Below the pieces are notes generated by a model. That model saw nothing but the letters and a program-made list of their open reading frames with translations. It had not been told where the DNA came from and searched no databases. This document shows, one piece after another, positions 1,790-16,446 of a stretch of 64,000 bases of DNA. The first letter of the stretch is position 1; every line of letters starts with the position of its first letter. The stretch is from Candidatus Bathyarchaeota archaeon (GTDB taxonomy: Archaea > Thermoproteota > Bathyarchaeia > Bathyarchaeales > Bathycorpusculaceae), in contig CAWAKC010000006.1 of NCBI GenBank assembly GCA_963782525.1, forward strand, positions 64,001 to 128,000. The letters run 5' to 3'. The translations under genes and the position numbers were made by a program.

Positions 1790-1839
1790 CGTTGGTTAGT
1801 CTGTTCAGGAATTATTTAAAGCTGAGGGTTTTTGTCGGT

Positions 1840-2046
1840 TTATTCTTTGCTGGATTTTTTGTCTTCGTTTATCAGTTGTGCTAAACGGTAGGTGATGTAG
1901 GCTGAGAAGCTGTGGATGCCTTTTTTTATAGCGTAGTCGTCTTTTACTTTGAGCCATTCGTTAAAAAAGTAGTCGTAAACATCAGCCTTAACAGTGATGC
2001 TTTTGTAGCCTTTTTTCGGCGTTTGTGTTTCCCTCTCTTCAGCCAT
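1840..2046 (-). CDS. Small ribbon-helix-helix-like DNA-binding protein
   Basis: PKKGYKSITV beta-strand followed by two helices; TATA-like CTTAAATA upstream. Confidence 0.7.
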   Translation of the reverse strand: MAEERETQTPKKGYKSITVKADVYDYFFNEWLKVKDDYAIKKGIHSFSAYITYRLAQLINEDKKSSKE

Positions 2047-2583
2047 AGTATCCGAACGTACATTTATTTAAGGGTAACTCCTATTTTTGGGTAGTATTTT
2101 ACAGAGTTAAACCTATTATTCTATAATTTTAGCATGGACGAGGTACTGCCCACCGCATAAGATATCCTAAACTCTGCACTAAAAGGTTTCCCATTGTAGC
2201 AGATGCGTGGTAATATCTTAGTGTAGTAGCAGTAATTGAATGTAGCAACCTTTAGATCATCAGCCTTACAGTAGTAGAAACTTGGGTGAGTAGCAACTTT
2301 TTTAGGATAAACCTCTGTAGCAGAAAGTAGCCTTATTCTATGTAGCACAATTTGAGGTGAATAATAATATTGTTTACGCTACTTTACTCTATCACTTGCT
2401 ATAGCTTGGAAAAATTGAAAGAAAACTTTGTTGTCTTTAAGCGAAAGCGTAAGTGCAGACAAGCACGAAAGCGTTATGACAGAGCGCAACGAAAGTGGAG
2501 CGTTACCCAAAGGGCTATTGTGCGTTACGTTATCCCTCTTAGCCAATCTCTATGTCTCTATGTAATCTTGAAACTTGGAAAAC

Positions 2584-2769
2584 TCAATCCTTTAAGTTTT
2601 TGGCATATCTCATAAACAAATACAACGCTTGAAGAGCTACCCCTAAAATTATTAGATTCCCACCCCAAGTAGTTGCATCAGTGTTTGCATGTGCCAAAAG
2701 TAAAAGAGCGCCCATTACTATACATATTGCAGGAACCGTATAGGCTAATACTTTTATGTCAACTGGCAT
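2584..2769 (-). CDS. Small two-TM membrane protein
   Basis: Two hydrophobic helices; own TATA (CCTTAAAT, ~2819-2826, - strand). Confidence 0.65.
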   Translation of the reverse strand: MPVDIKVLAYTVPAICIVMGALLLLAHANTDATTWGGNLIILGVALQALYLFMRYAKNLKD

Positions 2770-2860
2770 CTGATTCTCAACTTCTCTTTTCTGAATAAGC
2801 CATTATGATACTATGCAGATTTAAGGCTTGTCTCAGTGCAAAGTAGCGAAATTCCACTGA

Positions 2861-3436
2861 TTAAGTCCATGTTATAGCCCAGTTCCAATTATAGCTACTC
2901 GGTAATTGGAAGGGAAACGAGAATTGTATATCCGCTAATTGATAAACAGAATGCCCATTGACCGTTCCAATACTATTGTAAGTTTTAACGAACTGACCAC
3001 CGTTAAAGGTGAATGTGAATGTTATTACCACATTAGACGCTGAGTTAGTACCAAAGTTTACGATAAAACCATTAGAAAAAGTTATGATACTATTCGGACT
3101 GACATACATCACATTAGGAGAAATTGTAATGAACGCTGAAAGGGTTGATGCTGGATTATAACCCTGTCCTGTTGGACCCTGAAGTCCTTGTATTCCCTGA
3201 GCACCTTGTGGACCTATAGCACCTGTACCGCCCGTAACTCCTGTAGGTCCTTGTGGTCCAGTTGCACCCGTAGCTCCTGTTGTTCCTGTAGCCCCCGTTG
3301 CACCCGTATCACCTTTTTGCCCTTTAATCACATCTAATTGTGTAACCACCCCAACAGAGACTAAGCTCGAAACCAACATGGCAACAATCAAACCAACAAC
3401 AAATAAGCCCTTTGATATTCCTGTAGTTTTAGACAT
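2861..3436 (-). CDS. Membrane-anchored collagen-like surface protein
   Basis: N-terminal TM, 18 consecutive Gly-X-Y triplets, C-terminal beta-rich domain; SD AAGGT upstream. Confidence 0.85.
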
Positions 3437-3583
3437 TAGGATACCTTCGTTTTATCGCATTAGGCTATTATCATGCGATGTAAATTTAAGACTTATCATC
3501 ATGAAAACTTGGCAACGCTAACAAGCACTATAAGCTTATATCTGTAGACCCAACAAAGAGGCTAATGTGGGGAAATCGAATAA

Positions 3584-4282
3584 ATGACAAGCCAAAAACC
3601 TCGGCATTTGGGCAGAAATATTGGAGCTGCTGTTATAGTGATAGCTGTTCTTATTGTAGCTATTTTTGCGGTTGTATATTTCTCAGGAAATTCTCTTAGA
3701 ATTGGAAATCCATTTGACTTCAAAATCTCAACCATCGATTCAAGCGGAACAGCTATGCAGGGTAGTAGCATACAAACTACTGTTTACATTAACGTAATAA
3801 GCGGTAATCCTCAAACAGTGACTTTAAGTGCTGACAGTGGGTCAAGTGGTATAAACTGCAACTTTAGCCCATCATCAAACACGCCAGACTTCTCAAGCAC
3901 ATTAACTCTAAACGTTCCATCTTCAACACCGACAAGTGCTTATTCAGTAACAATAACAGCATCAAGTGGGGAAATATCTCATAGCACATCCTACAGCATT
4001 TCAGTTCTAAGCGCTAAAGTACTCGTCTCTGGTTCTGTAGAGACAACAGGTTTGGGGACACATCCGACTGAAATTCAATTCATTGACCAACAAACATCCG
4101 TTACCTACACTGGAAGTCTATCAGGCACATCATATTCGATTAGTCTTCAAAATCAACATACTTACACCGTAACTGTTCATTGGGCAGGGCTTCTGTTCAC
4201 TTCTGGAACATACAATGGTGGTAGTCTGTATGTCTACGCACCAGTTGGATATACGTCAATGAACCAAGACTATTCTGGTTAA
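3584..4282 (+). CDS. Membrane-anchored Ser/Thr-rich beta-sandwich surface protein
   Basis: N-terminal TM then Ig-like repeats (STLTLNV...YSVTITAS). Confidence 0.75.
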   Translation: MTSQKPRHLGRNIGAAVIVIAVLIVAIFAVVYFSGNSLRIGNPFDFKISTIDSSGTAMQGSSIQTTVYINVISGNPQTVTLSADSGSSGINCNFSPSSNTPDFSSTLTLNVPSSTPTSAYSVTITASSGEISHSTSYSISVLSAKVLVSGSVETTGLGTHPTEIQFIDQQTSVTYTGSLSGTSYSISLQNQHTYTVTVHWAGLLFTSGTYNGGSLYVYAPVGYTSMNQDYSG

Positions 4283-4315
4283 TTCGTCTTACTTGCTCAT
4301 TGAGAGAAACTTGGA

Positions 4316-4708
4316 TTATTCGTTCCTTTCCAGTCTATCCCCGAAATGAAGTATCGGAACAGCATTATAGAATCCAGCACTCTTGTTCTCGGGTTCGAGT
4401 GGGTAAGTGCTTTCTAAGTCTCTCCATTTCTCTGCATCTGTCAGGGTGTGGTCAAGCTCGATGTGTAACTTCACTCTAAGTTCTCGATCACGAACCTCTC
4501 GCCATTCAGCTAACTCTCTGTCGTGTTGCTCCCGAGACTCGGCTGAGAGGTCATAGTATTGGAAGAACTTATGCGTTAAAATGTACTCTTCGTACTGTTC
4601 TTTAGTGAAGCCCTTAAATCTATATTGTATTTGTTTTAGGGTCTTCTTCTCTTGCTTCTTTTTCTCTGAAGCTTCTATTATTATTGGATTAATTTGTAAA
4701 GTTTCCAA
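4316..4708 (-). CDS. Hypothetical protein (element)
   Basis: 130-aa ORF with SD AAGGAG upstream. Confidence 0.6.
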   Translation of the reverse strand: METLQINPIIIEASEKKKQEKKTLKQIQYRFKGFTKEQYEEYILTHKFFQYYDLSAESREQHDRELAEWREVRDRELRVKLHIELDHTLTDAEKWRDLESTYPLEPENKSAGFYNAVPILHFGDRLERNE

Positions 4709-4738
4709 AATTTTTTAAACTCCTTTTTCTTAAAAGAA

Positions 4739-4781
4739 AATAGGGGAAGGAAAGAAGGTAATCTTAGAAACTTCCCCTATT
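4739..4781 (-). terminator. Hairpin (11-bp perfect stem) followed by T-tract on the - strand
   Basis: AATAGGGGAAG...CTTCCCCTATT; lies between ORFs 4799 and 4708. Confidence 0.55.
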
Positions 4782-4798
4782 CGCTTGAGATGTGAGTG

Positions 4799-5128
4799 TT
4801 AGTTATTCTTCTTTTTTTGATACTGGTTCAATATCTTTCTAACATCATTGTTTAGGGTTCTCGCTGCTCCCCTGTACATTGAGTTAGTAGGGGAAGGAAG
4901 GACAGGAAGAATATTCTCAATTACTGAACGTCTACCTTCTTCTTTTGCTTGCTCGCATACCTTAGCTATTTCTGCTCGTTTAATGCGCTGGTTGTTCTCT
5001 AATCTTTTCTTAGCGTTTAGAAGTTCTGCTTCTCTGGTCTTTGCTCGGTTAACGCTTTCTCTTAGCTCGGCTTCTCTCTGTTGTATTGCCATTAACTTAC
5101 CTCTTAGCTCTGCTTCTTTATTGCTCAT
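4799..5128 (-). CDS. Coiled-coil protein (element)
   Basis: Repeated REAEL heptads; abuts the upstream stop (TAAATG). Confidence 0.7.
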   Translation of the reverse strand: MSNKEAELRGKLMAIQQREAELRESVNRAKTREAELLNAKKRLENNQRIKRAEIAKVCEQAKEEGRRSVIENILPVLPSPTNSMYRGAARTLNNDVRKILNQYQKKKNN

Positions 5129-5383
5129 TTAGATGCTGTCTCCGACCTGTAGCTCGTCTGCATGATATTTGATAAAATCTCTAAGTTTACATGATTCTCT
5201 GAACTCTTCATTTATGGAACGGTAGCATGTACCATTTTTAGCGGTTTTATTAAGCCAGCGTAGTTGTGCCTTTACCTTGGTCTTAGCATAGGCGATTGGT
5301 CTACAGTGGTCGCAGAATTTTTCATTTAGTTTGAGTGGAGTTCCACAATTACAGATATGTCTCAGTGTTTCTTGTAGGCTCAT
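5129..5383 (-). CDS. Small Zn-finger-like protein
   Basis: CNCG...FCDHC motif; tight operon packing. Confidence 0.65.
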   Translation of the reverse strand: MSLQETLRHICNCGTPLKLNEKFCDHCRPIAYAKTKVKAQLRWLNKTAKNGTCYRSINEEFRESCKLRDFIKYHADELQVGDSI

Positions 5384-5388
5384 AATAA

Positions 5389-6102
5389 TTAACGCCTTAA
5401 CCGTTCCTTTGATTCTTTGTTTCCTTTTCCAAGGAACGAACCCAACCCAAATCCACTCTTCTTCTTTTCTGGTTCTTTCTTTGCAGATTTTAAAGTAGCA
5501 CAGTATTCTTCTGGACTTGGACGGCGATAGCGTTTGTAAGTTGTATCGAATACAAACCCGAGACTTTTCATGTAAGCATCGTTATCCTGTCTTAAGGTAG
5601 CTACTCCCTCTGTAATCTTATCACAGGGGATAGGTGCTGCTTTTTCTACTACAGGGTCAGGTGTGCTTGCGGTCTTGAAAGTATAGATGTAGTTAACTCT
5701 CTCGCCATGAGTATCTGAATTGCAAACTTGAACGTAGACCTTAGCTTCTTCACCGTTTTCACTGAATCGAACATCTGAAGACTTATACTCAGAACCATCA
5801 AAGAAATTCCATTTATTTCTCTGTGGGTCAAATTTGATAGTGTATCTTCCATCTGAGAAACTTAGAGATTTCTTTAGAGTGGCTGATGCTACATCAAAGC
5901 TTTCTATTAATGAATTGAACTCTTTTACTAACCGCTCTATCTTGATTAAATCTGCTTGGTACTCTTGAGAGTGAACGTAAGGCTCTCCATTCTTCAGCCT
6001 AATGGAACTTGGATTATCTGTTTTACTGCTAAGTTGTTCTATCTCTTTCTTGAGAGATAATTTCTTAGACTTTATTTCATCATTACTCAAATTACTCGAC
6101 AC
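5389..6102 (-). CDS. Hypothetical protein (element)
   Basis: 237-aa ORF, SD GGAGTGAG, operon packing. Confidence 0.7.
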   Translation of the reverse strand: MSSNLSNDEIKSKKLSLKKEIEQLSSKTDNPSSIRLKNGEPYVHSQEYQADLIKIERLVKEFNSLIESFDVASATLKKSLSFSDGRYTIKFDPQRNKWNFFDGSEYKSSDVRFSENGEEAKVYVQVCNSDTHGERVNYIYTFKTASTPDPVVEKAAPIPCDKITEGVATLRQDNDAYMKSLGFVFDTTYKRYRRPSPEEYCATLKSAKKEPEKKKSGFGLGSFLGKGNKESKERLRR

Positions 6103-6104
6103 AC

Positions 6105-6218
6105 TTACTCACTCCACCCAAATTCAATTCGTTGTGAAACACTCTTTTTGCGGAGAGTGGTTTGTCCCACAAGCGAATGATGCTTGACACTATAGATATT
6201 TGTTTTAGTTCCTATCAT
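6105..6218 (-). CDS. 37-aa microprotein (not in ORF track)
   Basis: MIGTKTNIYSVKHHSLVGQTTLRKKSVSQRIEFGWSE; SD GAAGGT; fills the operon gap. Confidence 0.45.
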   Translation of the reverse strand: MIGTKTNIYSVKHHSLVGQTTLRKKSVSQRIEFGWSE

Positions 6219-6236
6219 ACTACTTTACCTTCTTTT

Positions 6237-6491
6237 TTAGACCTGATACTTAACTACTATTTTTTCAGCAAACGTGTCTTTGAGTCCACCTTCACTGTTT
6301 AAAGACTGAATGCTCTCGTAGTTGCTAAGAGCAATCTTAGTCTGAGATGACAACTCTTTATTGAAAAGTTCAACATTATTGATTAAAAGAGCCATCTGTT
6401 CTTCTAATGCTGTTTCTCTAAGATGCAGATAGTACAGCTTAACGTCTATATCTCCAAAGATTAATTTCCTGAGAGCTTGAGATAACTTCAA
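6237..6491 (-). CDS. Small coiled-coil protein
   Basis: TTG start overlapping the upstream TGA; SD GAGGT. Confidence 0.6.
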   Translation of the reverse strand: MKLSQALRKLIFGDIDVKLYYLHLRETALEEQMALLINNVELFNKELSSQTKIALSNYESIQSLNSEGGLKDTFAEKIVVKYQV

Positions 6492-6652
6492 TAGAATTGA
6501 CCTCGGGAGTTTCTTTTCCTTACTTTTCCAGCATTAGTTCTTTCCCTGCAACCATCAGAGCAGAATAGCTTGTCAGTGTAGTAAGTTTGGAACTCTTCTT
6601 TGCATCCAAGGCATTTTTTGTTTAGAATTACTTGGGATATGTTATTCATCAT
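6488..6652 (-). CDS. 54-aa Zn-finger microprotein (not in ORF track)
   Basis: KKCLGCKEEFQTYYTDKLFCSDGCRER: CxxC...FCSxxC pattern typical of phage/plasmid TRASH-like fingers. Confidence 0.7.
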   Translation of the reverse strand: MMNNISQVILNKKCLGCKEEFQTYYTDKLFCSDGCRERTNAGKVRKRNSRGQFY

Positions 6653-6654
6653 TA

Positions 6655-7122
6655 TCAATCAAACTCTTTTCTGAAATTTTTCCATCTTGGATAATCGTGT
6701 ATCTTTAAGCTACACTCGGGACATCCTTTCGACTCGAAATGACTAAAGAAATAGCCACAAATGGAGCATTCAATATGATTCTCCACACAGGATAGGAATT
6801 GTTCTATCTCTCCAAGATTTATACCGTTACAAAGTGGAGTATCATCCTCTAAGTAGTGATGTATCTCTTGAAAGTCAACATTCACACCAATACTCTGGTA
6901 CAACTCTTTTCTATGATTGTAAGCTTCTTTCACTTGCTGGAGCGTCTTACCGTAAAAATATCTGTTAACAATACTCTCAAAGTTCTCTACTTTCTGAGTA
7001 ACTTGACTAACATTGGTCTTCAAAGCTGCTTCTATCTTAGTCTGTAACGATTGCTCTTTCTTCACTTGTTGGAAATGTCTTTGTCTCTCTGCATTAGTAG
7101 CGAAGATACGCTTTCTTCCCAC
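6655..7122 (-). CDS. Putative DNA-binding protein with N-terminal GRKRxFxTNAERQR motif and C-terminal Zn ribbon
   Basis: Motif common in plasmid/phage proteins; CSICG...CPEC; SD GGAGAGGT. Confidence 0.7.
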   Translation of the reverse strand: MGRKRIFATNAERQRHFQQVKKEQSLQTKIEAALKTNVSQVTQKVENFESIVNRYFYGKTLQQVKEAYNHRKELYQSIGVNVDFQEIHHYLEDDTPLCNGINLGEIEQFLSCVENHIECSICGYFFSHFESKGCPECSLKIHDYPRWKNFRKEFD

Positions 7123-7207
7123 TTAGACCTCTCCTTTAATGTCTGATTTCTGTTTTCGAGAGAATAGTCTAAGTTGTTTATTGCCCACCAAAATAATCCT
7201 CTTCTTT

Positions 7208-7375
7208 TTACTTACTCTTCTGTTCCTTTTCCTTTAGAGCTTCCAATGCTCTTTCTATTATGGAATTGTAGGACTCGCAACTGACTAACTTAGCATTATC
7301 TAAGCTGTCCTTTGTAGCAGTATGAACTATTATGAGCTTGAACTTCTTAGTGTCCATTTTTCTCTTAGTAGACAT
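7208..7375 (-). CDS. 55-aa ribbon-helix-helix/CopG-like regulator heading the operon (not in ORF track)
   Basis: KFKLIIVHTATKDSLDNAKLVSCESYNSIIERALEAL matches the archaeal RHH pattern (ESYxxxIxR); TATA-rich 7406-7420 upstream. Confidence 0.7.
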   Translation of the reverse strand: MSTKRKMDTKKFKLIIVHTATKDSLDNAKLVSCESYNSIIERALEALKEKEQKSK

Positions 7376-7569
7376 TATTTTCAACTAATAGCTATAGGTC
7401 TAACTGTATATATATGTATATTGGTTGTATTGATATCTATTAATACATTAAAAAGAGTGATAAAGTTTAACGGGTTTATTATCACCTTATCCCTATCTCT
7501 CTCATCTCTCGCCAAGTTTCCAAGTTTTCAATAAATCTTTGAGAGCATTCTGGTTGAATATTGACTGAC

Positions 7570-8140
7570 AGAATTAACCTTAATCCGTCCTTCTTTAGCT
7601 GTATAACATTCTTAACGGTCGTGTTTCCATTGGAAATTTATAATCAATTAGATAGACCTTAACCTTACCTTCTTTAGCAAATTGCTGCCTTCTCCATGCC
7701 GATTGCTATTAGCAATTTTTCATCAACCAACTTTGTTCTAATACCAGAGCTAAAGCCTTGATTACCTGAATAGACCCCTTGATAGAGCGATTACTCTGAG
7801 TAATTACCTGTTTTAAGACCTCAAAAATAGGCTTACCTTCTATCTTCTTTCACTGAATTTCAACTCAAATAACTTTGCTAATACCCGAGATAATGGCTTG
7901 ATTTTTTGAATAGAGTCTTTTCTGTTCCGATTTATCTGATAAATTCCACTCCTAATTAGCGTCTATTCACTCTGAGCGCATTTTTAATTAATAGATTGAC
8001 CTGTTTTCAGCTCTGTTTGTTATTTAAAGGGCTTATTAACCTGATTCATCGGATGAATTTTTTTCTTTAATAAAAATAAACCCAAAAATAACTCTCTCAC
8101 TCAATTAAACCCTGTTTCTAACCGAGAGATGTCATCTCTA
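7570..8140. repeat. Non-coding array of degenerate tandem repeats, each with a 13-15-bp odd palindrome
   Basis: Palindromes at 7624-7636, 7702-7716, 7790-7804, 7930-7944, 8044-8058, 8125-8139; 79-bp and 140-bp duplication periods. Confidence 0.8.
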
Positions 8141-8293
8141 AAGAGCAGAAACTTAGCTAATAACAAAAGTGCTTGAAAAACACCCTAAAACATTGTCTTT
8201 CTTAGGGAACTTGACTCATTAATCTTGAGCAAAAAGACAATTCTTCTGAGCACATTCAATCTTTTTCTTTCGCTTAGATGTTGCCATAAGCTA

Positions 8294-8917
8294 CTATCTC
8301 CTATAGCCTCTATGTTGGGTAAAACCTTCTTGTTGCAAACAATAATCAGGATTCTTTCCATCATTGATTGATACTTCTTTGCTTGTCTGGATAATTTCCA
8401 ACATCTTGAGTTTATTGATGTAGGATTCCGCTTCTATTGCTGCTAAGTTAGTTTGGTATCTTTTGCTGAATGGTTTAAGCAGTTTGAATAAGGCACTTTC
8501 AAATAATGCTCGAATGGTTGTGTGCAGATTATCTTCTTCTGCATGAATGTAAGTTGGAATTAGCTGGATACGTTCTTTCTTAAGTTTCTCTTCCATTTCT
8601 TTAGAGATGTTGGGGAAACTTATGCTTAGAACCCATTCGTCTTTATGTTCTGGGTCCTGACGATGGAAGTATTCTATCTTAGAATCTATAATGTCATTAT
8701 TCATATGGGTTAATTTTTTAGGGTTGGTAACTTCTAAAAGAATCCTTTTTCCTTTAACTGGAATAACTATATCAACTGCATTGTGATGGTCGAATGAATA
8801 TTCAGAGTGGTCAAAACTGTTATGATCGCACTTTAAGCCTAACTTCTGCTCTATGAAGTGGACATGTGCCATCTCTGCTGGAATACCGCTTAGATAGTTT
8901 ATGTTGAAGTTACTCAT
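8294..8917 (-). CDS. PD-(D/E)xK-like nuclease-fold protein
   Basis: AE helix ... AVDIVI ... ILLEVTN core; canonical ExK Lys replaced by Thr. Confidence 0.6.
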   Translation of the reverse strand: MSNFNINYLSGIPAEMAHVHFIEQKLGLKCDHNSFDHSEYSFDHHNAVDIVIPVKGKRILLEVTNPKKLTHMNNDIIDSKIEYFHRQDPEHKDEWVLSISFPNISKEMEEKLKKERIQLIPTYIHAEEDNLHTTIRALFESALFKLLKPFSKRYQTNLAAIEAESYINKLKMLEIIQTSKEVSINDGKNPDYCLQQEGFTQHRGYRR

Positions 8918-8926
8918 TTTTCATTA

Positions 8927-8987
8927 CTCGTCTAATGTGCTTGAAAGAAGGTTGGAAGGAACGAGCTTCCCCTTCATAAAATCAAGC
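8927..8987 (-). promoter_or_regulatory. Predicted 5' UTR hairpin/pseudoknot of the nuclease gene
   Basis: Stems GCTTGA/TCAAGC, GAAGG/CCTTC, GGAAG/CTTCC; loop CUCGUU complementary to GACGAG just upstream of the ATG. Confidence 0.45.
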
Positions 8988-9717
8988 TGTTGTTATGCGC
9001 AAATATATTAATGGTGGATAAGTTTAATAAGGTTTACTGCATTGCAGTTTTTTCGGTGTTTTATGTGGCGTACGCTTGCTGGTTATTTTTCACTACAAAA
9101 ATCTAAGCCTTTTTTGGTCCTCTCCATGCAATACAAGGCTGTTTTAAACGTAGTGATGCTATCACCAAACTTATTATCTAACATCCTCTTAACACGTTCA
9201 AGAGTACCAAGAACATTATAATAAAAAGCAAAAATACAGCCCCATTCTAACCTTCTTTTCTAAATTACTACTTTATTTGGGATTGATCGCATTGCGAATT
9301 AAATCTCAACCCGAAACAGTTCCCATTCTGATTTGGGGCTAACAAAATTTTCTGGGAGATTTCAAAGCTCATTAAGATGTGGCAGGGCATGGAAGGGATA
9401 GTTATTCTATTTAGATAGTAAGTAAGTACTATCCACATCTTTATTCTTGGTTAGGTTTCTGAGCATTGAAGTTTCTTATTTCTTCAAAGCTTGCTCTTAG
9501 TGTAGCATCCACGTTCAACAACTATAGTATAACACCGCTTATCGTTCTACAGATAGACAGATTAGCTGCCTTACTAACCCCTTCATAGTAACATAGTAGG
9601 CTATCCAATAGTAGGAGCTTAGTAGCAATGTTCTCATGCCTCACCTTTATTGATTAATAACTCTGGTTAAAGGGTAGAATATGCAGTTAGATTAAACAAT
9701 GATTCTGTTCTGCATTA

Positions 9718-10812
9718 CTACTCTGGTTCTTGTTCCTGTCTCTGTGCCTCTTCTTCTATATCATGCTCTAACTCTTCTGTTGTCATGTTAAATCTACGTG
9801 CTATAAGTGCAATGGTAGCTTTAGATAGAAAGTTCTGTTTCTCAAGAAGGCTTATCCTCGCTGTAAGTTTAGTAACCTCTTCAGAGAGCTTAGAAACTTT
9901 GCCATTTCCATTAGTTAAGATGCATGTAGTCAATTTCATAACTTTACTGTAGCATTCTTTCAATTCAAAACTACTAACATACGCATCCTCAGAAGTGGCT
10001 TTCCCTACTATCTGCTTCCATTTAGACTCACTCATATTCCCAGATAGTCTATCAATAAGGTATTTTCTTAAGCAGTGGAATCTTAGGTGTTTATCTCCTA
10101 AATTGATATTTGCCTTATCCGCTAATTGCTGTAAAATTGTACTAAGTTCTCTCTCTAATATTGGAAAGATTCTTTCAGTATCGGCTTTATCGGTATTACC
10201 TTCAAGCATGGCTTTAACCACTGGTAAAGCATCACTGTCTATAAATGGATAAGCTGTTACTCCCTCTTTTTCTGTCACTGTTTCACCGATAAAGATAGGT
10301 GCTTCTTGATTCAAGTTAATACTTCTAAATGCGCCATAAGTGAAAGAAGCAAAGTCCCCTGCTCTAAACCCTAAACTCTTCCCTAAGAGTAACACATACT
10401 TTTCTCTAAGATCACCTACAAAAGCCATCTTAGAAATATCTTCATTTACCAACATGTAGTCTTTAGTTGTTCTCTTAGGCTTTCCACCAAGTTTCTTGGT
10501 TTCAGCAGTGGTAAATTCAAAGGGTACTCTATAGTAAGCAAAGAATGACCTTAAGCTGTTGATAGCTGTTTTACAAGCATTATCACTGTAATTCTGTTCT
10601 TTCATCCAACCAATAAAAGACATTATTTTTCTTTCCCACTCAAAGCCTTTATCAGCTTTTTTAGATTCTAAAAGCTCTTTTCCGCTCATCTTATAGTAAT
10701 CAACAATTTTTCTAAAGAAGCATAGATAGATTGTTGCTGTACTCTTTTTTTGACTGTTTAGAAACTCTTTGATTGTATCATCTATTCCCTCATAATTTGT
10801 TATTCTTGGCAT
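9718..10812 (-). CDS. Tyrosine recombinase/integrase
   Basis: LRSFF N-domain, GFRAGD (Arg), TEKE (Lys), FHCLRK (HxxR), DAY (Tyr); ATG 10812 follows SD AGGAGTGA. Confidence 0.92.
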   Translation of the reverse strand: MPRITNYEGIDDTIKEFLNSQKKSTATIYLCFFRKIVDYYKMSGKELLESKKADKGFEWERKIMSFIGWMKEQNYSDNACKTAINSLRSFFAYYRVPFEFTTAETKKLGGKPKRTTKDYMLVNEDISKMAFVGDLREKYVLLLGKSLGFRAGDFASFTYGAFRSINLNQEAPIFIGETVTEKEGVTAYPFIDSDALPVVKAMLEGNTDKADTERIFPILERELSTILQQLADKANINLGDKHLRFHCLRKYLIDRLSGNMSESKWKQIVGKATSEDAYVSSFELKECYSKVMKLTTCILTNGNGKVSKLSEEVTKLTARISLLEKQNFLSKATIALIARRFNMTTEELEHDIEEEAQRQEQEPE

Positions 10813-11030
10813 CTTATCGTTCACTCCTAACACCCTCTTACCTTTAACTGCTTAATAAATTGTACTCCAAAAAGGTGTTTATTTAAGGTTTAAGAATGTT
10901 AGCGGTTGTTTACCGTTAATTATATTTATCTTTAGCTATTACTTCCGTTAATAGTTTTTTTTAGGTTTGTTGTGTTTTGTACGTTCGTTTTCTTTCATTC
11001 TCCATATATCTTTTCATAGTTTAAAAAACT

Positions 11031-11402
11031 TTAGAATTCCTCTTCTGGAAAAAGTGCGTTTTTATCGTCTATTCCTAGCACACCATCATATTCTGATCCA
11101 TCATCTTTTTCGGTCTCTTCGCTGTTTTGGGTTTGTTGTTGCGGTTCATAGCCTTTAGGATAAATTTGTGTAAGGTTTAGACGGTATTTCATAAATCCAA
11201 TAAAGCCTAGTGGTTTAGGTTGCTTTTTCTGTTCTGGAATCTTTAGTTTCACTTCATAAGGTACGCCTTGCTGAATGAACGGTTCTGTAGTGAGTTTTAG
11301 GTCTATCTCTGGAAATACAAATTGACCTTTAGGCAATTCTGTTATTACGTCTCTAAACTCTGCATTATGAATATAATGGCTCTGGAATAATGGGTAGAAC
11401 AC
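11031..11402 (-). CDS. Hypothetical protein with acidic C-terminal tail
   Basis: 123-aa ORF; start uncertain; overlaps the divergent ORF. Confidence 0.4.
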   Translation of the reverse strand: MFYPLFQSHYIHNAEFRDVITELPKGQFVFPEIDLKLTTEPFIQQGVPYEVKLKIPEQKKQPKPLGFIGFMKYRLNLTQIYPKGYEPQQQTQNSEETEKDDGSEYDGVLGIDDKNALFPEEEF

Positions 11403-11668
11403 TAAAAAAGGTAGAAACAGATAAAGAATGTTTACCCTCTAAGCTAAAAGGATATTTCCACAGTGACGAAACTAGACGATATTTTCCAAATTTTGAGATT
11501 GCAACAGAAACAGAACTATTTTTAATTGAGCCTAATGCGGTAATAGAACAAACAAAACAGAATAAAGCAGAACCGTTAAAGTTTTCGTGGTATTGCTCAG
11601 TATGCAAAGAACCTAATGCATACGATGCTAAAGTGTGTAAATGGTGCGGAATAAAGAGAAAATCCTAA
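11390..11668 (+). CDS. Protein with C-terminal RanBP2-type Zn finger
   Basis: WYCSVCKEPNAYDAKVCKWCG = W-x-C-x2-C-x3-N-x6-C-x2-C. Confidence 0.7.
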   Translation: MGRTLKKVETDKECLPSKLKGYFHSDETRRYFPNFEIATETELFLIEPNAVIEQTKQNKAEPLKFSWYCSVCKEPNAYDAKVCKWCGIKRKS

Positions 11669-11784
11669 GTTTCTTTAAAGTCATAAAGGCTAGTTTACTT
11701 CTGGCTTCTTAACCAGCCTAATGACAGCGGGGAAAGGTTCCTAAGAGTTTCCTTTTCCCACTAAACACTTTTTATTAAATAACT

Positions 11785-12804
11785 TAGAAGTGTGCACAAT
11801 TAATTTTTTATAGTTTTTCAGCTAATAACAATGTGAGCGAGACTGGGCCCGAACCCGTCAAAACCAATGGTTTGTGTCTAGGAACACTATAACCGTCTAA
11901 CTATTGGGTCAAGCCCAGTACTTGTTCACCGTTTTCAAGCTTTCTTCGCCGACAATGATCGACCTTATTGCTTCAGCATCGTAACTTATCAGTCCAGCCA
12001 TAACCATCGCCGCTTTCTTTACCAAACCTCTTGGCCAAAGCCAGCAATCCTTCAGTACATTCTCTTTGAGATGCTCGTTAAATTGTTCAACAACGTAGCG
12101 TTTAGTTTTCAAAAACTCCGCATGCTTGATTTTCTTGCGTTTTCCTCGTCTGGGGTTAGAAGCAATAACTGGCTCTGCCTCTATGCCCTTGGCTGCTCCT
12201 TTATTTGTTTTTGAGTCATAGCCCGCATCGGCCAAAACGTAGTCTGCCTCCAGATCCTCAATAAGCTTAGGAAAAAAAGGCGAATCATAGCGATTACCCG
12301 GTGTAACGATTCCTCTTAATGGCAGTCCCAGCTGGTTTACAGCAGCATGAAGTTTGAAGCCTCTGAATTTTCCACGGCTTGTGTGACCCCAGCCTGCTTC
12401 CATATCGTAGAGATCCACTAACGGCGTTGAATCAACAATTAAGAAGGTGGTCGGTGTCATAAGTTGAAGTATGTCTGCTATCTTTTCAAATGTCTCTTCA
12501 AGAAGGTCAAAGTAGCGTCTCCACCATCTTCCAACGGTAGTTCTGTTTGGTACTTTGCATAAGCCAAGTGTTCTAGCGGCATCCGAATGCTTCTTTAGAT
12601 GTTCAATTACACGCGTATCGTTCTCTAATCCTTTCAGTCTGGCATAAACGAGAACTCTTAGTGCTCTTAGGCGTCCGTAGCCTGGGTTTCCGCGTCTTTT
12701 GGGTTCTGTTGAAACGATTGCTTTGTTGACGAAAAGCCTGACGACCTCACAGGCTTCCATAATAAAATATAATTAAGAAGCAGCTTAAATTCTGCACACC
12801 CCTA
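11785..12804 (-). mobile_element. Insertion sequence, 1020 bp, IS4/IS5-superfamily DDE type
   Basis: 17-bp imperfect TIRs TAGAAGTGTGCACAATT (11785-11801) and rc TAGGGGTGTGCAGAATT (12788-12804); 7-bp TSD AATAACT at 11778-11784 and 12805-12811. Confidence 0.92.
11909..12760 (-). CDS. DDE transposase
   Basis: IVDST, GFKLH, ADAGYD, RYVVEQ catalytic motifs; intact. Confidence 0.95.
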   Translation of the reverse strand: MEACEVVRLFVNKAIVSTEPKRRGNPGYGRLRALRVLVYARLKGLENDTRVIEHLKKHSDAARTLGLCKVPNRTTVGRWWRRYFDLLEETFEKIADILQLMTPTTFLIVDSTPLVDLYDMEAGWGHTSRGKFRGFKLHAAVNQLGLPLRGIVTPGNRYDSPFFPKLIEDLEADYVLADAGYDSKTNKGAAKGIEAEPVIASNPRRGKRKKIKHAEFLKTKRYVVEQFNEHLKENVLKDCWLWPRGLVKKAAMVMAGLISYDAEAIRSIIVGEESLKTVNKYWA

Positions 12805-12833
12805 AATAACTAATAAGGGGAAATAAAGACGAA

Positions 12834-12998
12834 ATGAAATTTGTTTGTATTAACTGCAATAAAGAAACAAAGCTAGAAAAGTTAAGGGAAAATCAGATAA
12901 TAAACTGCTCTTCATGCAATAAACCGTGAATCTACAGAGATGGAAACTTGATTTACTTAGAGATAAGAAATATTGTTAGTGGTTGCGAATGGTTTTGA
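12834..12998 (+). pseudogene. Zn-ribbon microprotein (LysW-like Cys spacing) with internal TGA
   Basis: MKFVCINC...NCSSCNKP*IYRDGNLIYLEI...; TGA at 12927-12929; frame continues. Confidence 0.55.
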
Positions 12999-13082
12999 TA
13001 AAGATGTACTCTATTTTTTAGAAGTTTTCTTTTTCCTTCTGTCATCATTATTCACACCAACCCTGAGAGCAAAACGGTTCTA

Positions 13083-13264
13083 TTAAGGAATAATCAGTTC
13101 TCTGCCACACATAGGGCATTGAACAGGGGTTTTCTTTTGGTAATAAAGCAATTGAACCCCACATAAATAACAAAGGGATATTTTGCATTTTGGGCAGTAT
13201 TTGATGCCACCATAACCATTTTTCCGCACATTGTACAGGGAGTTGTAAGGTCAAAAAAGCCCAT
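13083..13264 (-). pseudogene. 8-Cys RING-like microprotein with 1-nt frameshift
   Basis: Adding one A to the A5 run at ~13219-13223 gives MGFFDLTTPCTMCGKNGYGGIKYCPKCKISLCYLCGVQLLYYQKKTPVQCPMCGRELIIP; SD GAGGT. Confidence 0.7.
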
Positions 13265-13404
13265 GACCTCAATGTTTGGTTAAACAAAATATAAAGAGCA
13301 GCTTGAAACGACATTCTCTCATAGTGGAGAGTCTATTGAAAGAGATAGGGCAAAAAAAGCAAGGGCAAAAACTTAAAATTGAATAACAGAGAAATAGCGA
13401 TAAC

Positions 13405-14079
13405 ATGGCAAAAACAGGTCAAAGCATTATTTTTCAATTGAAGCGTTTCCTAAGAATTGGCTCTAATGAAAATTAAAAGAATATCAAAAGAATTCAATTC
13501 GTAAAAGGTGACGAGTGGCAAAAAATAATACATCCACTTGTTGAGGAAGTTAATGAAACGTGCAAGAAAAAGAGATTTACAGAAAGAAGAAAGAATCAGT
13601 TCATTATTATTGGTTTTGGTGCGTTTATGATATGTGTAATAGCTGCGGGATTAAACTATTTTGCTTATTACTTAATTGGACAATTCATTAACATTATTCC
13701 AAACATATCACCAAGCAATCAGACGCAGATTTCTTTGGATAATCAAACCGTTACTCAAGCTCAAATCAATCAAATTAATTTTGCCATGCAACAGTTTCCA
13801 ACACTTTTTGCTTTAACCGTGGGAGTAATAGCTATTATTGTTACTGTTTATGCGATTGTTGTTCCGTTGATTTTTGGAACTTCTTCAATTTCTGAGATTG
13901 CTGAAGAGTATTTTGCAAAACTAAGAAAAGGAAAACCCCTCAATGTTAGACCGTACCTTAAAGCTTTGATTAACATGAAATGTGAAGAATTTGATTTAGA
14001 CCTTACCATAGCTTATGATTTAAATCCTGAGCTATTTTCTCAAGAATCTCTGCTGAGACGTCTTTACAAATGCGGTTAA
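13405..14079 (+). pseudogene. Two-TM membrane protein with early in-frame TAA
   Basis: Leaderless ATG 13405 is in frame with ORF 13627; TAA at 13474-13476. Confidence 0.6.
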
Positions 14080-14139
14080 TCTCATAGCAAATATGCGATG
14101 GCAAAACTTAAAACTTCTTAGCGTAGAAATAGACTAATT

Positions 14140-14664
14140 ATAGCTGAAAAGAAAAATGCGAATTAAACTAAGAATGAACAAAAAAAGAGCAACAAATCGA
14201 ATCAAGTTAAAATCCCGAAAAAGTCTCTTTACGCTCTTGCTATTGCAACTATAATAGTTGTAATATGGGTTGGTATTGGGTCGTCAACAAAATATGGGCT
14301 TCAAATAAAACTCTCTGAAACGTATATCCCAACTCTAATTAACGGAATAACGACTTCAACCAGTGTAGTCATTGGTATATTTATTGCAATTCTTGGAATT
14401 ATGTTACGTTTTTCTATTGAAAAAAAAGACACTGCATCTAAACTGTTTTATCTAACTGCGATAGTGGTTCTTATAGTTCCTGTAGCTTTTCTCTGGTCTA
14501 CCTACGCCTTTCTAACTCAGGGATTTTTGACATTTGCAGTTACATACGCACTCGATGCTCTCATTTTTGCTTTATTCGTCCTTATCGTTATTGTAACCTT
14601 CACTGTAGTAAGAATTACAAACCAAACCGAAAAAGAAGACCCAACTGTTGGAAACGATTTCTAA
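14140..14664 (+). pseudogene. Four-TM membrane protein with ATA start and early TAA
   Basis: Frame of ORF 14401 is open back to TAA 14164-14166 and includes two more TM helices; promoter similar to that of 13405. Confidence 0.6.
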
Positions 14665-14767
14665 AGCTAACCTTACTCCGCTTTATTTTTTCTGGGCACT
14701 TTTTTTATCAAGTACAAGCCTTATATTAAAGGTTAGAACAATAGCGTTCTTTAAGGAGATCCGTAAA

Positions 14768-15019
14768 ACGTCTGGAACACGGCAGTTAGGAATTGCTTTA
14801 ATCGTTTTTGGTGCACTTCTTCTGGTAGGTGCGGCTTTTGCATATACATAGGCGCAAACCCACTCAATAAGTGGTGCTGGAATCACGATACCATTACCGT
14901 CAACTTATCCATATAGAGATGATGCTACGGGTTTAATTCTCGGAGCCGTTGCCATGTTTGTTGTAGGGTTTGCTTTACTTGTCTATAAACCTCAAAATTC
15001 TCTACCACCACCGCCTTAA
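14768..15019 (+). pseudogene. Two-TM 'YPYR' small membrane protein with ACG start and internal TAG
   Basis: SD TAAGGAG 9 nt upstream; TAG 14849-14851, then ...STYPYRDDATGLILGAVAMF...PPPP*. Confidence 0.65.
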
Positions 15020-15152
15020 ATCTACGAGTCACGATTTCTATCCCCATCGAGGGATAGCGGTCTTAATCGTTTTTTAGTGAAAAATAAGTAAATTCCTTAT
15101 CAGTTTTAAAGTAACATTTCTAAGCCTTAACATTTCTATTGAAAGGGTAATA

Positions 15153-15290
15153 ATGGAAAGTTGCAACGATAAAAAACTGTTTTTGTGTAAAATGGAAACT
15201 TGGAGAATTAACGAATATGTACCGAAAAGAACCTGTACCTATGGCATGGGTGAAAAATGCAAAGTTTTCAATAGGTCTCCTTACTTCTAA
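15153..15290 (+). CDS. 45-aa Cys-containing microprotein (not in ORF track)
   Basis: MESCNDKKLFLCKMETW...TCTYGMGEKCKVF; SD AAGGGT. Confidence 0.4.
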   Translation: MESCNDKKLFLCKMETWRINEYVPKRTCTYGMGEKCKVFNRSPYF

Positions 15291-15443
15291 ATTTGGTTAA
15301 GAAGCTAAGTTTTTAAATAACCTTTCATACCATAAAGTACGGTACGAGAAAAGTTGTCTTAGTAATTCTGAGTAACTCGTGTTGCTCTGAATACCAAGAC
15401 TACCAATCTTGAGACTGTAAAGTACGGAAGGAGACTTAGTCTT

Positions 15444-15590
15444 TTGCCAAGGAAAGGTTACAAATGCATAACAGTGACAGAAAAGCTGCATGAAGAAATT
15501 AAGAAAAGGGCAGACGAAACAAACCGAACTATGAAAGAATACATCGAATACTTAATGGCACACGAAAAAGCTAACAAAGCAGGAAAATAA
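15444..15590 (+). CDS. 48-aa ribbon-helix-helix protein (not in ORF track)
   Basis: MPRKGYKCITVTEKLHEEIKKRADETNRTMKEYIEYLM; SD GAAGGAG. Confidence 0.75.
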   Translation: MPRKGYKCITVTEKLHEEIKKRADETNRTMKEYIEYLMAHEKANKAGK

Positions 15591-15593
15591 TTT

Positions 15594-15779
15594 ACGACCC
15601 TAAAAATCCTCCAAAACAACGATCGTGTAGCAGAAGTTCAGTTCATTTGTGATTCCTGCGGTAGGCTGGTAAGGACAAGCCTGATTCCCAGAAAAGAAAT
15701 CGATGCCCAAAAAAACATGGACGTAACATGTTGGCAATGCAAACATCCAAACTCAGCTAAAGATAAAACTAAAAATTAA
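15594..15779 (+). CDS. 61-aa Zn-finger protein with non-canonical ACG start (or start-mutated pseudogene)
   Basis: FICDSCG...VTCWQCK; lies in frame directly behind the RHH stop. Confidence 0.5.
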   Translation, partial: TTLKILQNNDRVAEVQFICDSCGRLVRTSLIPRKEIDAQKNMDVTCWQCKHPNSAKDKTKN

Positions 15780-16156
15780 GTTCGCCTTTCTAACGCTTCA
15801 GCATCGATTATTTCAAGCAACCTAACGACCCGTTTACCCTTGATAGCTTTTTCTTTTTTAGTAATCGTGCTTCTTGACTGACAAATCTCATCCAGAATAA
15901 TCCCTACATCTTCGTCCACAATCACCGGGTACACTCTGCAGCCAGCAGGTCGATCAGCATAAACACTGCAAAGGCGATTTTTGCGGTCGTAGAAAACACA
16001 GTAACCCTCACGATTTTTTAGAATTGCATAGCCTTGTTTGTCTAAGTTTATGAATTGGTTTTGACTGAAACCCTTCTTCTCCAAACGTTTAATATCTTTT
16101 TTGGAGAGCAACATTTCAGTTTCTGTACAGCAAACTCCGCAGTTTGAGCAATCCAT
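15776..16156 (-). CDS. YkgJ-family Fe-S/Zn cysteine cluster protein
   Basis: CxxCGxCC, CVFYD, CSVYADRPAGCRVYP; likely ATG at 16156. Confidence 0.88.
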   Translation of the reverse strand: MDCSNCGVCCTETEMLLSKKDIKRLEKKGFSQNQFINLDKQGYAILKNREGYCVFYDRKNRLCSVYADRPAGCRVYPVIVDEDVGIILDEICQSRSTITKKEKAIKGKRVVRLLEIIDAEALERRT

Positions 16157-16206
16157 AGGCGATGATGTGTCAAGGCGGTATTTGTGTTTTATCAATAGCC
16201 GCTTTT

Positions 16207-16446
16207 TTAGGCTGGATTTTTCATCAAGTTCATGTTGAGCATTTCTGCCCAAGCCACATTTTTAAGAGGTACACGGGTGACTTTATGATTGCTTGACAGA
16301 GAGTACTCGAGTAGGTTGTTTTTTTTCCCTACGCCCTTGTGGATTTTTGTCAATTGAACGTTAACGATTACGGCTCCGTCTTTTAGGTGCAGGTTAACGT
16401 TTCTTCCGATAAATGATCGTGCACTATTAGCGCTAAAACTCTCCAT
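16207..16446 (-). CDS. Small Sm/LSm-like beta protein
   Basis: FIGRNVNLHLKDGAVIVN pattern; SD GAGGA before ATG 16446. Confidence 0.6.
   Translation of the reverse strand: MESFSANSARSFIGRNVNLHLKDGAVIVNVQLTKIHKGVGKKNNLLEYSLSSNHKVTRVPLKNVAWAEMLNMNLMKNPA

Follow-up and report, generated by a model that had tools for sequence, protein, structure and literature searches.

Many small integrated elements of uncultured archaea lack any recognisable genes for replication or transfer, and how they replicate, spread and compete is an open question. An array of short palindromes in a 64,000-nucleotide stretch of Bathyarchaeota DNA (the whole stretch analysed, hereafter the window) bears on it. The array, seven units of ~80 bp (7570..8160, minus strand), sits in a low-GC integrated region whose genes all lie on the minus strand: a tyrosine integrase (9718..10833; phrog_216, E = 3 × 10−6), a 207-aa ORF, a 55-aa ORF and seven ORFs of unassigned function. 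The core genes of unassigned function (155, 53, 84, 237, 84, 109 and 130 aa; 4316..7122, minus strand) are common to the elements in two further genomes, G386 and G489. No replication, transfer or capsid gene was recognisable in the element and it encodes no Lrp-family protein; a tRNA scan of the window returned none, and attachment sites of the window element were looked for and not found. The 155-aa core protein had four homologues, and the viral collection contained no relative of it, of the 130-aa protein or of the 207-aa protein, a further search there giving single scattered matches. The 55-aa ORF (7208..7375, minus strand) appears ribbon-helix-helix-like by eye and matched neither Pfam nor PHROG; between it and the array lies a spaced inverted repeat, GTGATAA...TTATCAC (7459-7487), a possible operator.

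Six palindromes had been reported here in an initial annotation, and all were recovered where it had placed them, as were the triplets ahead of the five 15-mers (CCG, GCG, CCG, CTG and CCG) and two degenerate duplications with periods of 79 bp (83% over 23 nt) and 140 bp (71% over 68 nt). When compared with shuffled sequence, as that annotation had proposed, odd palindromes with arms of 7 numbered 5 in 571 bp (7570-8140) against a mean of 0.07 and a maximum of 2 in 5000 dinucleotide shuffles, none of which equalled the count; for arms of at least 6 there were 6, against a mean of 0.24 and a maximum of 3. Pooling loop sizes 0-8 at arm 7, a count that enters one site under several loop sizes, was far less striking (at least 5 sites in 14 of 2000 shuffles), and the density signal is therefore specific to the 1-nt centre. 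The 2.87-Mb genome contains 239 palindromes with arms of at least 7 and a 1-nt centre, and the array is their only cluster of three or more within 700 bp. A decayed seventh unit, absent from the earlier list, brings the spacings to 79, 88, 140, 36, 78 and 81, a period near 80 bp. Units 1 (8125..8139, with a differing outer frame), 2 (8044..8058), 4 (7930..7944), 5 (7790..7804) and 6 (7702..7716) pair at 7/7 positions, decayed unit 3 (7966..7980) at 5/7, and unit 7 (7623..7637), the first site along the window and a 15-mer with one outer G/T mismatch, at 6/7.

The 207-aa protein (8294..8917, minus strand) had been called PD-(D/E)xK-like, and the core fold was indeed matched by its predicted structure (pLDDT 88), with a best Z of 9.1 (rmsd 4.4, 124 aligned) and top matches nearly all from the PD-(D/E)xK superfamily, pointing to no specific family. 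It has 48 relatives at E ≤ 0.001. E15, D49 and E62 are conserved, the residues recorded as invariant being D49, E62, N65, K80 and D88, and E-x-T-N-P-K stands in place of ExK. The window copy of the gene is frameshifted: intact nucleases are 251 aa in G386 and 248 aa at locus L042, and a C-terminal tail in another frame (8185-8433, minus strand) matches the C-terminus of the G386 protein at 54% identity across 54 aa. Because this tail belongs to the gene, the array begins about 45 bp past the full-length gene end. The proposed link between nuclease and array held for close homologues (at least 50% identity, 4/4 loci) and failed for distant ones, an array being absent from 20/20 distant metagenome loci, several of them short contigs; eight further genome loci also had none. 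In the G386 element, whose nuclease is 88% identical, the core genes occur together with an array of seven units; at L042 (73%) the array comprises at least six sites and ends at a convergent foreign ORF; and in the G489 element (51%) the nuclease gene is preceded by three units and followed by two. A unit stands upstream of that gene at the same place in all four elements, with different cores (9285..9299 in the window, 5/7 pairs). The evidence on the units comes from these four elements; the contigs L052 and L062 end inside the nuclease gene. A profile from 25 units recovered one site outside its training set (G386 12315), and elsewhere in the host genome it reached at most 18.4. Searches of class (401), family (332) and order (401) genomes added no members to the clade; the unit pattern gave 4 further matches in the 332 family genomes, none with a palindrome, against 4 control matches, and the upstream copy of the unit gave 0 matches in the viral collection.

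The integrases of the three complete elements are unrelated (23% or no significant identity) and their insertion sites differ, and five loci with close integrase relatives (41-45% identity) have no array. Since the arrays are also missing from distant nuclease loci, the units follow one clade's core module, and neither the integrase nor the nuclease family at large. This bears on the idea that the element's integrase runs an integron-like cassette system in which each unit serves as a recombination site. The position of the units at gene boundaries would suit it, as would a zinc-ribbon ORF family that lies to one side of the nuclease gene in G386 and to the other in G489. Integron attC sites have RYYYAAC...GTTRRRY cores around an imperfect hairpin, and no such core was matched on either strand of three arrays; whereas attC sites would travel with one integrase family, these units accompany three unrelated ones, and differing cores would block homology-dependent exchange. 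Such a cassette system is very unlikely here. As to the insertions themselves, the G386 element lies at the 3' end of a protein-coding gene (L038:5700-5794 / 14560-14698), methyltransferase-like by our own reading, with a diverged copy of that 3' end at its other side, similar in protein and not in DNA. The G489 integrase is split by a 54-bp tRNA-like attachment repeat (L079:7995-8999, 15996-16289) while the core genes are the same, placing three unrelated integrases on one core.

Read in the gene sense, a unit consists of an A-rich flank, a 7-bp arm, one base and the complementary arm, with further motifs downstream in many units: an RGYAAT-like motif ends exactly at +21 in 8/31 (at +19 or +20 in 3 more), and AAAGAAG stands at +25/26 in 10/31. 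Pairing by position, from just outside the arm inwards, was 2, 22, 29, 31, 30, 31, 30 and 26 among the 31 sites, counts that are inflated by selection of the sites as near-palindromes (the decayed G386 orthologue at 10661 was excluded). The arm edges are sharp, with position 0 paired in 2/31 sites and positions 2-6 in 151 of 155 cells, the 4 mismatches including one G·U on each strand. A less biased measure is given by sites whose outer six pairs are intact, in which the innermost pair was complementary in 16 of 20 (binomial P = 2 × 10−6 at 0.28, the sites not being independent). The units have 24 distinct cores and 8 frames, the ATT frame occurring in 18, and the base at the centre shows a strand bias (A 14, C 6, T 3, G 2; n = 25). 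A coding reading of the units was rejected: peptide-like frames are not conserved and the array has no gene-sense ATG ORF of at least 13 aa.

The cores diverge symmetrically. In the seven closest unit pairs (flank identity ≥70%, flanks differing by 24%) both sides had changed at 18/49 pair positions and one side at 7, which bears out the claim that symmetry is preserved through double changes across homologous elements. Relative to their G386 orthologues, unit 5 shows four double changes and unit 7 two; the orthologue of unit 3 (L038:10847) pairs at 6/7, and that of unit 6 has decayed asymmetrically, a kind of decay seen in some units. Core identity is independent of flank identity (rho = 0.017), and the identical 15-mer of unit 4 recurs in G386 in a non-orthologous flank (40% alike). 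A general covariation scan of 1770 tests gave marginal matches only. Tandem duplication is evident and template switching is able to perfect palindromes, which might make the array a neutral by-product of duplication and quasi-palindrome correction in AT-rich DNA. However, the palindromes have a fixed length and position in four elements, and the observed count was never reached in the window shuffles or in 1000 shuffles each for the G386 and L042 arrays (two G489 stretches alone were not significant, at 120/1000 and 68/1000). The density and divergence counts have already largely refuted the neutral account, which we consider extremely improbable. The array is a real, conserved cis array; it is also previously undescribed, no description of it or of the RNA leader treated below having been found in a literature search over titles and the starts of abstracts, with subscription journals mostly outside its scope.

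That leader, a 67-nt kissing-loop RNA motif (8921..8987, minus strand) ending at the start-codon region of the nuclease gene, is probably the 5' leader of the gene, because a TATA box lies 41-44 nt upstream of it in four loci (scores 10.3, 3.0, 8.2 and 5.7; in the window 9024..9031, minus strand, scored 10.3 under the host model, at 44 nt). A 13-bp perfect odd palindrome (9035..9049) overlaps the BRE of this promoter, an operator position. Across 46 sources the motif was recovered at six loci only, namely in the window and at L038:12104-12172, L079:9781-9849, L042:153-226, L052:563-632 and L062:830-898, and 120 genus genomes gave two other matches, both weak (E = 0.014 and 0.047). Stem P1 is 100% paired with three double-changed pairs, and the two hairpin loops are complementary over 6/6 bases in all six loci through five different loop pairs; swapped loops mostly form 2-5 pairs, one U-rich loop reaching 6 with three others via G·U. 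The two-hairpin fold is the minimum-energy structure in 4/6 leaders, the other two folding otherwise in a calculation with pseudoknots excluded. Over 1800-16000, which includes leader and array, Rfam returned 0 matches to E = 1. Pseudoknots control the rep leaders of IncI/IncB plasmids and occur in type III antitoxins, where loop-loop pairing likewise lies beside the start codon of a mobile-element gene and the loops vary between elements; the present leader differs in having two adjacent hairpins within 67 nt, in single copy, with no Rfam match and no identified antisense RNA or leader peptide. Candidate roles are a translational switch, an incompatibility determinant or a ribozyme.

Within the element, the leader contrasts with the array: it has bulges, 6-8-nt open loops and G·U pairs, and the palindromes are without these. 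The array folded no better than shuffles on either strand (z = −0.88 and −0.05), and cognate flanks paired no better than non-cognate ones as RNA or DNA (0.46-0.49). These results count against the small-RNA array that had been suggested, in which a transcript shared with the nuclease gene would be cut at the hairpins into ~80-nt guides or antitoxins. Such RNAs would suit the unit length (67-81 nt), the co-oriented position downstream of the gene and an element that already uses a structured RNA in its leader, but 2 of 155 cells are of G·U type, units also occur upstream of the promoter, and the segments between the palindromes are paralogous to one another and matched nothing else in the host; we give this reading only a slim chance. 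The initial annotation had further concluded that structure, not sequence, is being maintained, and this is now doubtful: a hairpin would leave the innermost bases in its loop, so that their conservation counts against one; cores recur in unrelated flanks; and the spacing to further motifs is fixed. A hairpin or RNA reading of the array is weak because the arms stop at 7 bp, the innermost bases pair in 16/20 sites, G·U is nearly absent and folding is no better than in shuffles.

The main rival to a duplex reading is nevertheless of this kind. Single-stranded hairpins or short cruciforms could form at an origin of replication or transfer, where the PD-(D/E)xK protein would nick or resolve them by shape, and fold-back or strand-switch synthesis would copy one arm to the other, giving double changes at once. 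Strict symmetry with a free core and few asymmetric intermediates is what this would leave, and units flank the nuclease gene in 4/4 loci with at least 50% identity, L042 included. Junction resolvases and nickases are among the many proteins with the predicted nuclease fold (Z = 9.1 for the best match, 7.1 for Hjc), and the pseudoknotted leader recalls the way plasmid initiators are regulated in copy-number control. Against it stand the weakness of 6-bp, mostly A-T stems that never extend, the conserved innermost pair, a centre base whose strand bias opposes free flip-flop, the asymmetric decay of some units and the arrayless metagenome loci of distant homologues, several of which are short contigs. 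On balance we consider this explanation unlikely, though a serious contender.

The geometry of the units fits operators of dimeric DNA-binding proteins: their fixed length, sharp edges, odd centre with paired neighbours and fixed motif spacing suggest sites for dimers, and we infer that they are read by proteins on double-stranded DNA. The explanation we favour, with some hesitation, as one that may well hold but falls somewhat short of probable, is that the array is a panel of putative protein-binding duplex sites of varying specificity, working like multiple oriT mimics. Each unit would be a cis-acting dsDNA module comprising a 15-bp arm-N-arm' site for a dimeric protein and, some two helical turns downstream of it, conserved motifs. 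The element would retain one to three copies of this module upstream of the nuclease gene, and the downstream variants would have been amplified by tandem duplication; each core would be read by a protein of different specificity, so that symmetry is kept while the core changes, and units out of use would decay asymmetrically. In this way a small element might make use of proteins from several related elements, react to them or sequester them, with mobilisation or replication in trans, sensing or titration as possible outcomes. Twenty-four specificities are, however, a large number to posit, no reader protein was identified, and a search with the patterns used, covering the element's own genome, the viral collection and 332 family genomes, found no helper element carrying the unit.

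A close parallel comes from bacterial plasmids. The oriTs of pWBG749-family plasmids owe their specificity to a variable inverted repeat with a further arm-like copy nearby, and small non-conjugative staphylococcal plasmids collect 2-3 oriT mimic subtypes (PMC8136818). The array shares with these subtypes, as described there, a conserved cis module, a subtype-variable inverted repeat, nearby arm-like copies and several subtypes on one small element; it differs in being archaeal, in having 7-8 tandem variants built on 15-bp odd palindromes, and in that no relaxase, nick site, conjugation genes or helper were found (PMC8136818). If the panel reading is true, it would represent an archaeal counterpart of multi-oriT hitchhiking on a larger scale. 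The oriT-subtype model predicted a covarying extra half-site, and the top of 216 position tests fell at 21 bp downstream (z = 4.1). There, two turns away, a degenerate copy resembling the unit's own palindrome peaked (z = 3.7, family-wise P = 0.007, n = 29), and the signal persisted without the window, G386 or L042 (P = 0.01-0.04); it was lost without G489 (P = 0.19), weakened when each cluster was represented by a single unit (median z = 2.2, family-wise P = 0.59), and was not seen inside single elements. The copy tracked 5/32 arm differences, with 2 running opposite, and a covarying extra half-site is suggestive only. A 10.5-bp periodicity common to three arrays was not found.

Archaeal Lrp/FFRP operators offer a second likeness: operators of different specificity follow a common pattern, abcdeWWWedcba, in which the arms vary from one paralogue to another (PMC2715240). 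The present sites have the abcde-NNN-edcba layout of such 13-15-bp odd palindromes, with arms that vary as between paralogous readers and AAT as the commonest central triplet (7/31); in contrast to the operators described there, the triplet is A/T-only in just 11/31, host promoters hold no matching sites and the element has no Lrp protein (PMC2715240). The host itself has 15 AsnC-domain matches above the Pfam cut-off. Decoys of host operators were tried and rejected, 304 host matches being found against 289-378 for shuffled arms; as the host has no excess of matching sites, the units are not decoys of host FFRP proteins as a class. Alternatively, each unit could combine an activator site with a weak BRE/TATA, forming a tandem panel of promoters that would switch on the downstream operon for several regulators. 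Several units have a TATA-like sequence at +14 to +16, scoring at most 6.6; this, the palindrome over the nuclease promoter, and distant relatives in which another palindrome lies 14-15 nt before a strong TATA point that way. Yet the units score below the relatives' promoters (8.5-13.6), equal peaks occur at +3, +33 and +44, L042 has no co-oriented gene after its array, and the small downstream ORF comes with a TATA-like box of its own, leaving a promoter panel improbable.

Comparison with known repeat families supported the earlier view that the array is neither CRISPR nor attC, and it matches no Rfam family either. CRISPR arrays combine near-identical repeats with unrelated spacers, whereas here the cores differ and the intervening segments are paralogous, with no Rfam CRISPR repeat. 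A crude periodic 22-mer scan of the 96%-complete host genome found no host array with which a repeat could be shared. REP/HUH sites carry a conserved GTAG/GGAG-type foot 5' of the hairpin. The resemblance to them that had been proposed was not supported: the 31 sites have 20 different 3-nt feet, the supposedly typical CCG occurs in 4 of them, and the neighbouring gene has a PD-(D/E)xK fold, with no HUH family among the 17-18 ORFs scanned and TnpA, Cas and Nop-domain genes likewise absent. TIGR arrays and C/D guide RNAs are marked by boxes C and D and by an accompanying Nop-domain protein; box C occurs 0 times in the three arrays, CTGA is absent from L042 and no Nop domain is encoded. What the array has in common with these families, and with viral mini-arrays (PMC10848311), is a set of palindromic repeats, here 67-81 nt long, within a mobile element; it differs in lacking a conserved foot, attC cores, identical repeats, foreign spacers and box C. 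The first palindrome resembles the core of the archaeal ORB repeats of oriC, and both are clustered in a non-coding stretch, but the host's ORB-like repeats beside cdc6 have a downstream G-string, and the arrays have variable cores and no G-string. Those host repeats, upstream of cdc6 at G000:C7:364500-365250, are likely the host oriC. The array thus fails the defining tests of CRISPR, attC, REP, ORB, TIGR and strict FFRP sites.

A more speculative pair of proposals, unlikely as matters stand, concerns what the nuclease and the array might do. The PD-(D/E)xK protein, under element-specific kissing-loop translational control, could act on sites set by their 15-bp symmetry and not their sequence; alternatively, the element could be gathering a growing library of the recognition sites of rival elements. 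Were symmetry alone read, this would be a new kind of nuclease substrate; a library of rival sites would amount to a memory of other mobile elements kept in DNA, with no guide RNA required; and either would constitute an archaeal module so far undescribed. The cis module is short and well delimited and comes with natural specificity variants; together with the candidate enzyme and the covarying RNA leader, it can be studied in vitro without any need for the host.

An integrase was nearby in 10/26 nuclease loci. Distant nuclease homologues in L049, L051 and L058 belong to larger elements, where their neighbours are small regulator-like genes, coiled-coil genes and a shared ORF that looks phage-like. 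Near distant homologues we also observed an invariant palindrome, TTAATCA-NN-TGATTAA (L043:3037, L044:1133/1319, L045:5524, L046:7839, L049:5826, L051:5081/7451, L053:3745/4726, L058:7710/9198, L059:1560 and L022:14634), often 14-15 nt before a TATA box, sometimes paired 67 bp apart or directly after TTCGA T-loop-like fragments, and with 0 perfect copies in the host genome. This sister-clade palindrome was considered as an ancestor of the array units and set aside; being sequence-invariant and often following T-loop-like fragments, it is probably better regarded as a separate feature. At the far end of the element, a conserved non-coding stretch with internal repeats is found in three genomes (window ~2290-2470, without an Rfam match there; L038:5819-6007; L079 ~15650-15720). 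A short motif around CTTAAA...CATAG, probably a shared promoter, precedes cargo genes of several elements (window ~2811, ~3475, ~13372 and ~14107; L078:12214-12279; L079 ~14720). Finally, a DDE transposase insertion sequence occupies window positions 11860-12800, and the rest of the genome has seven relatives of it at ~83% identity.
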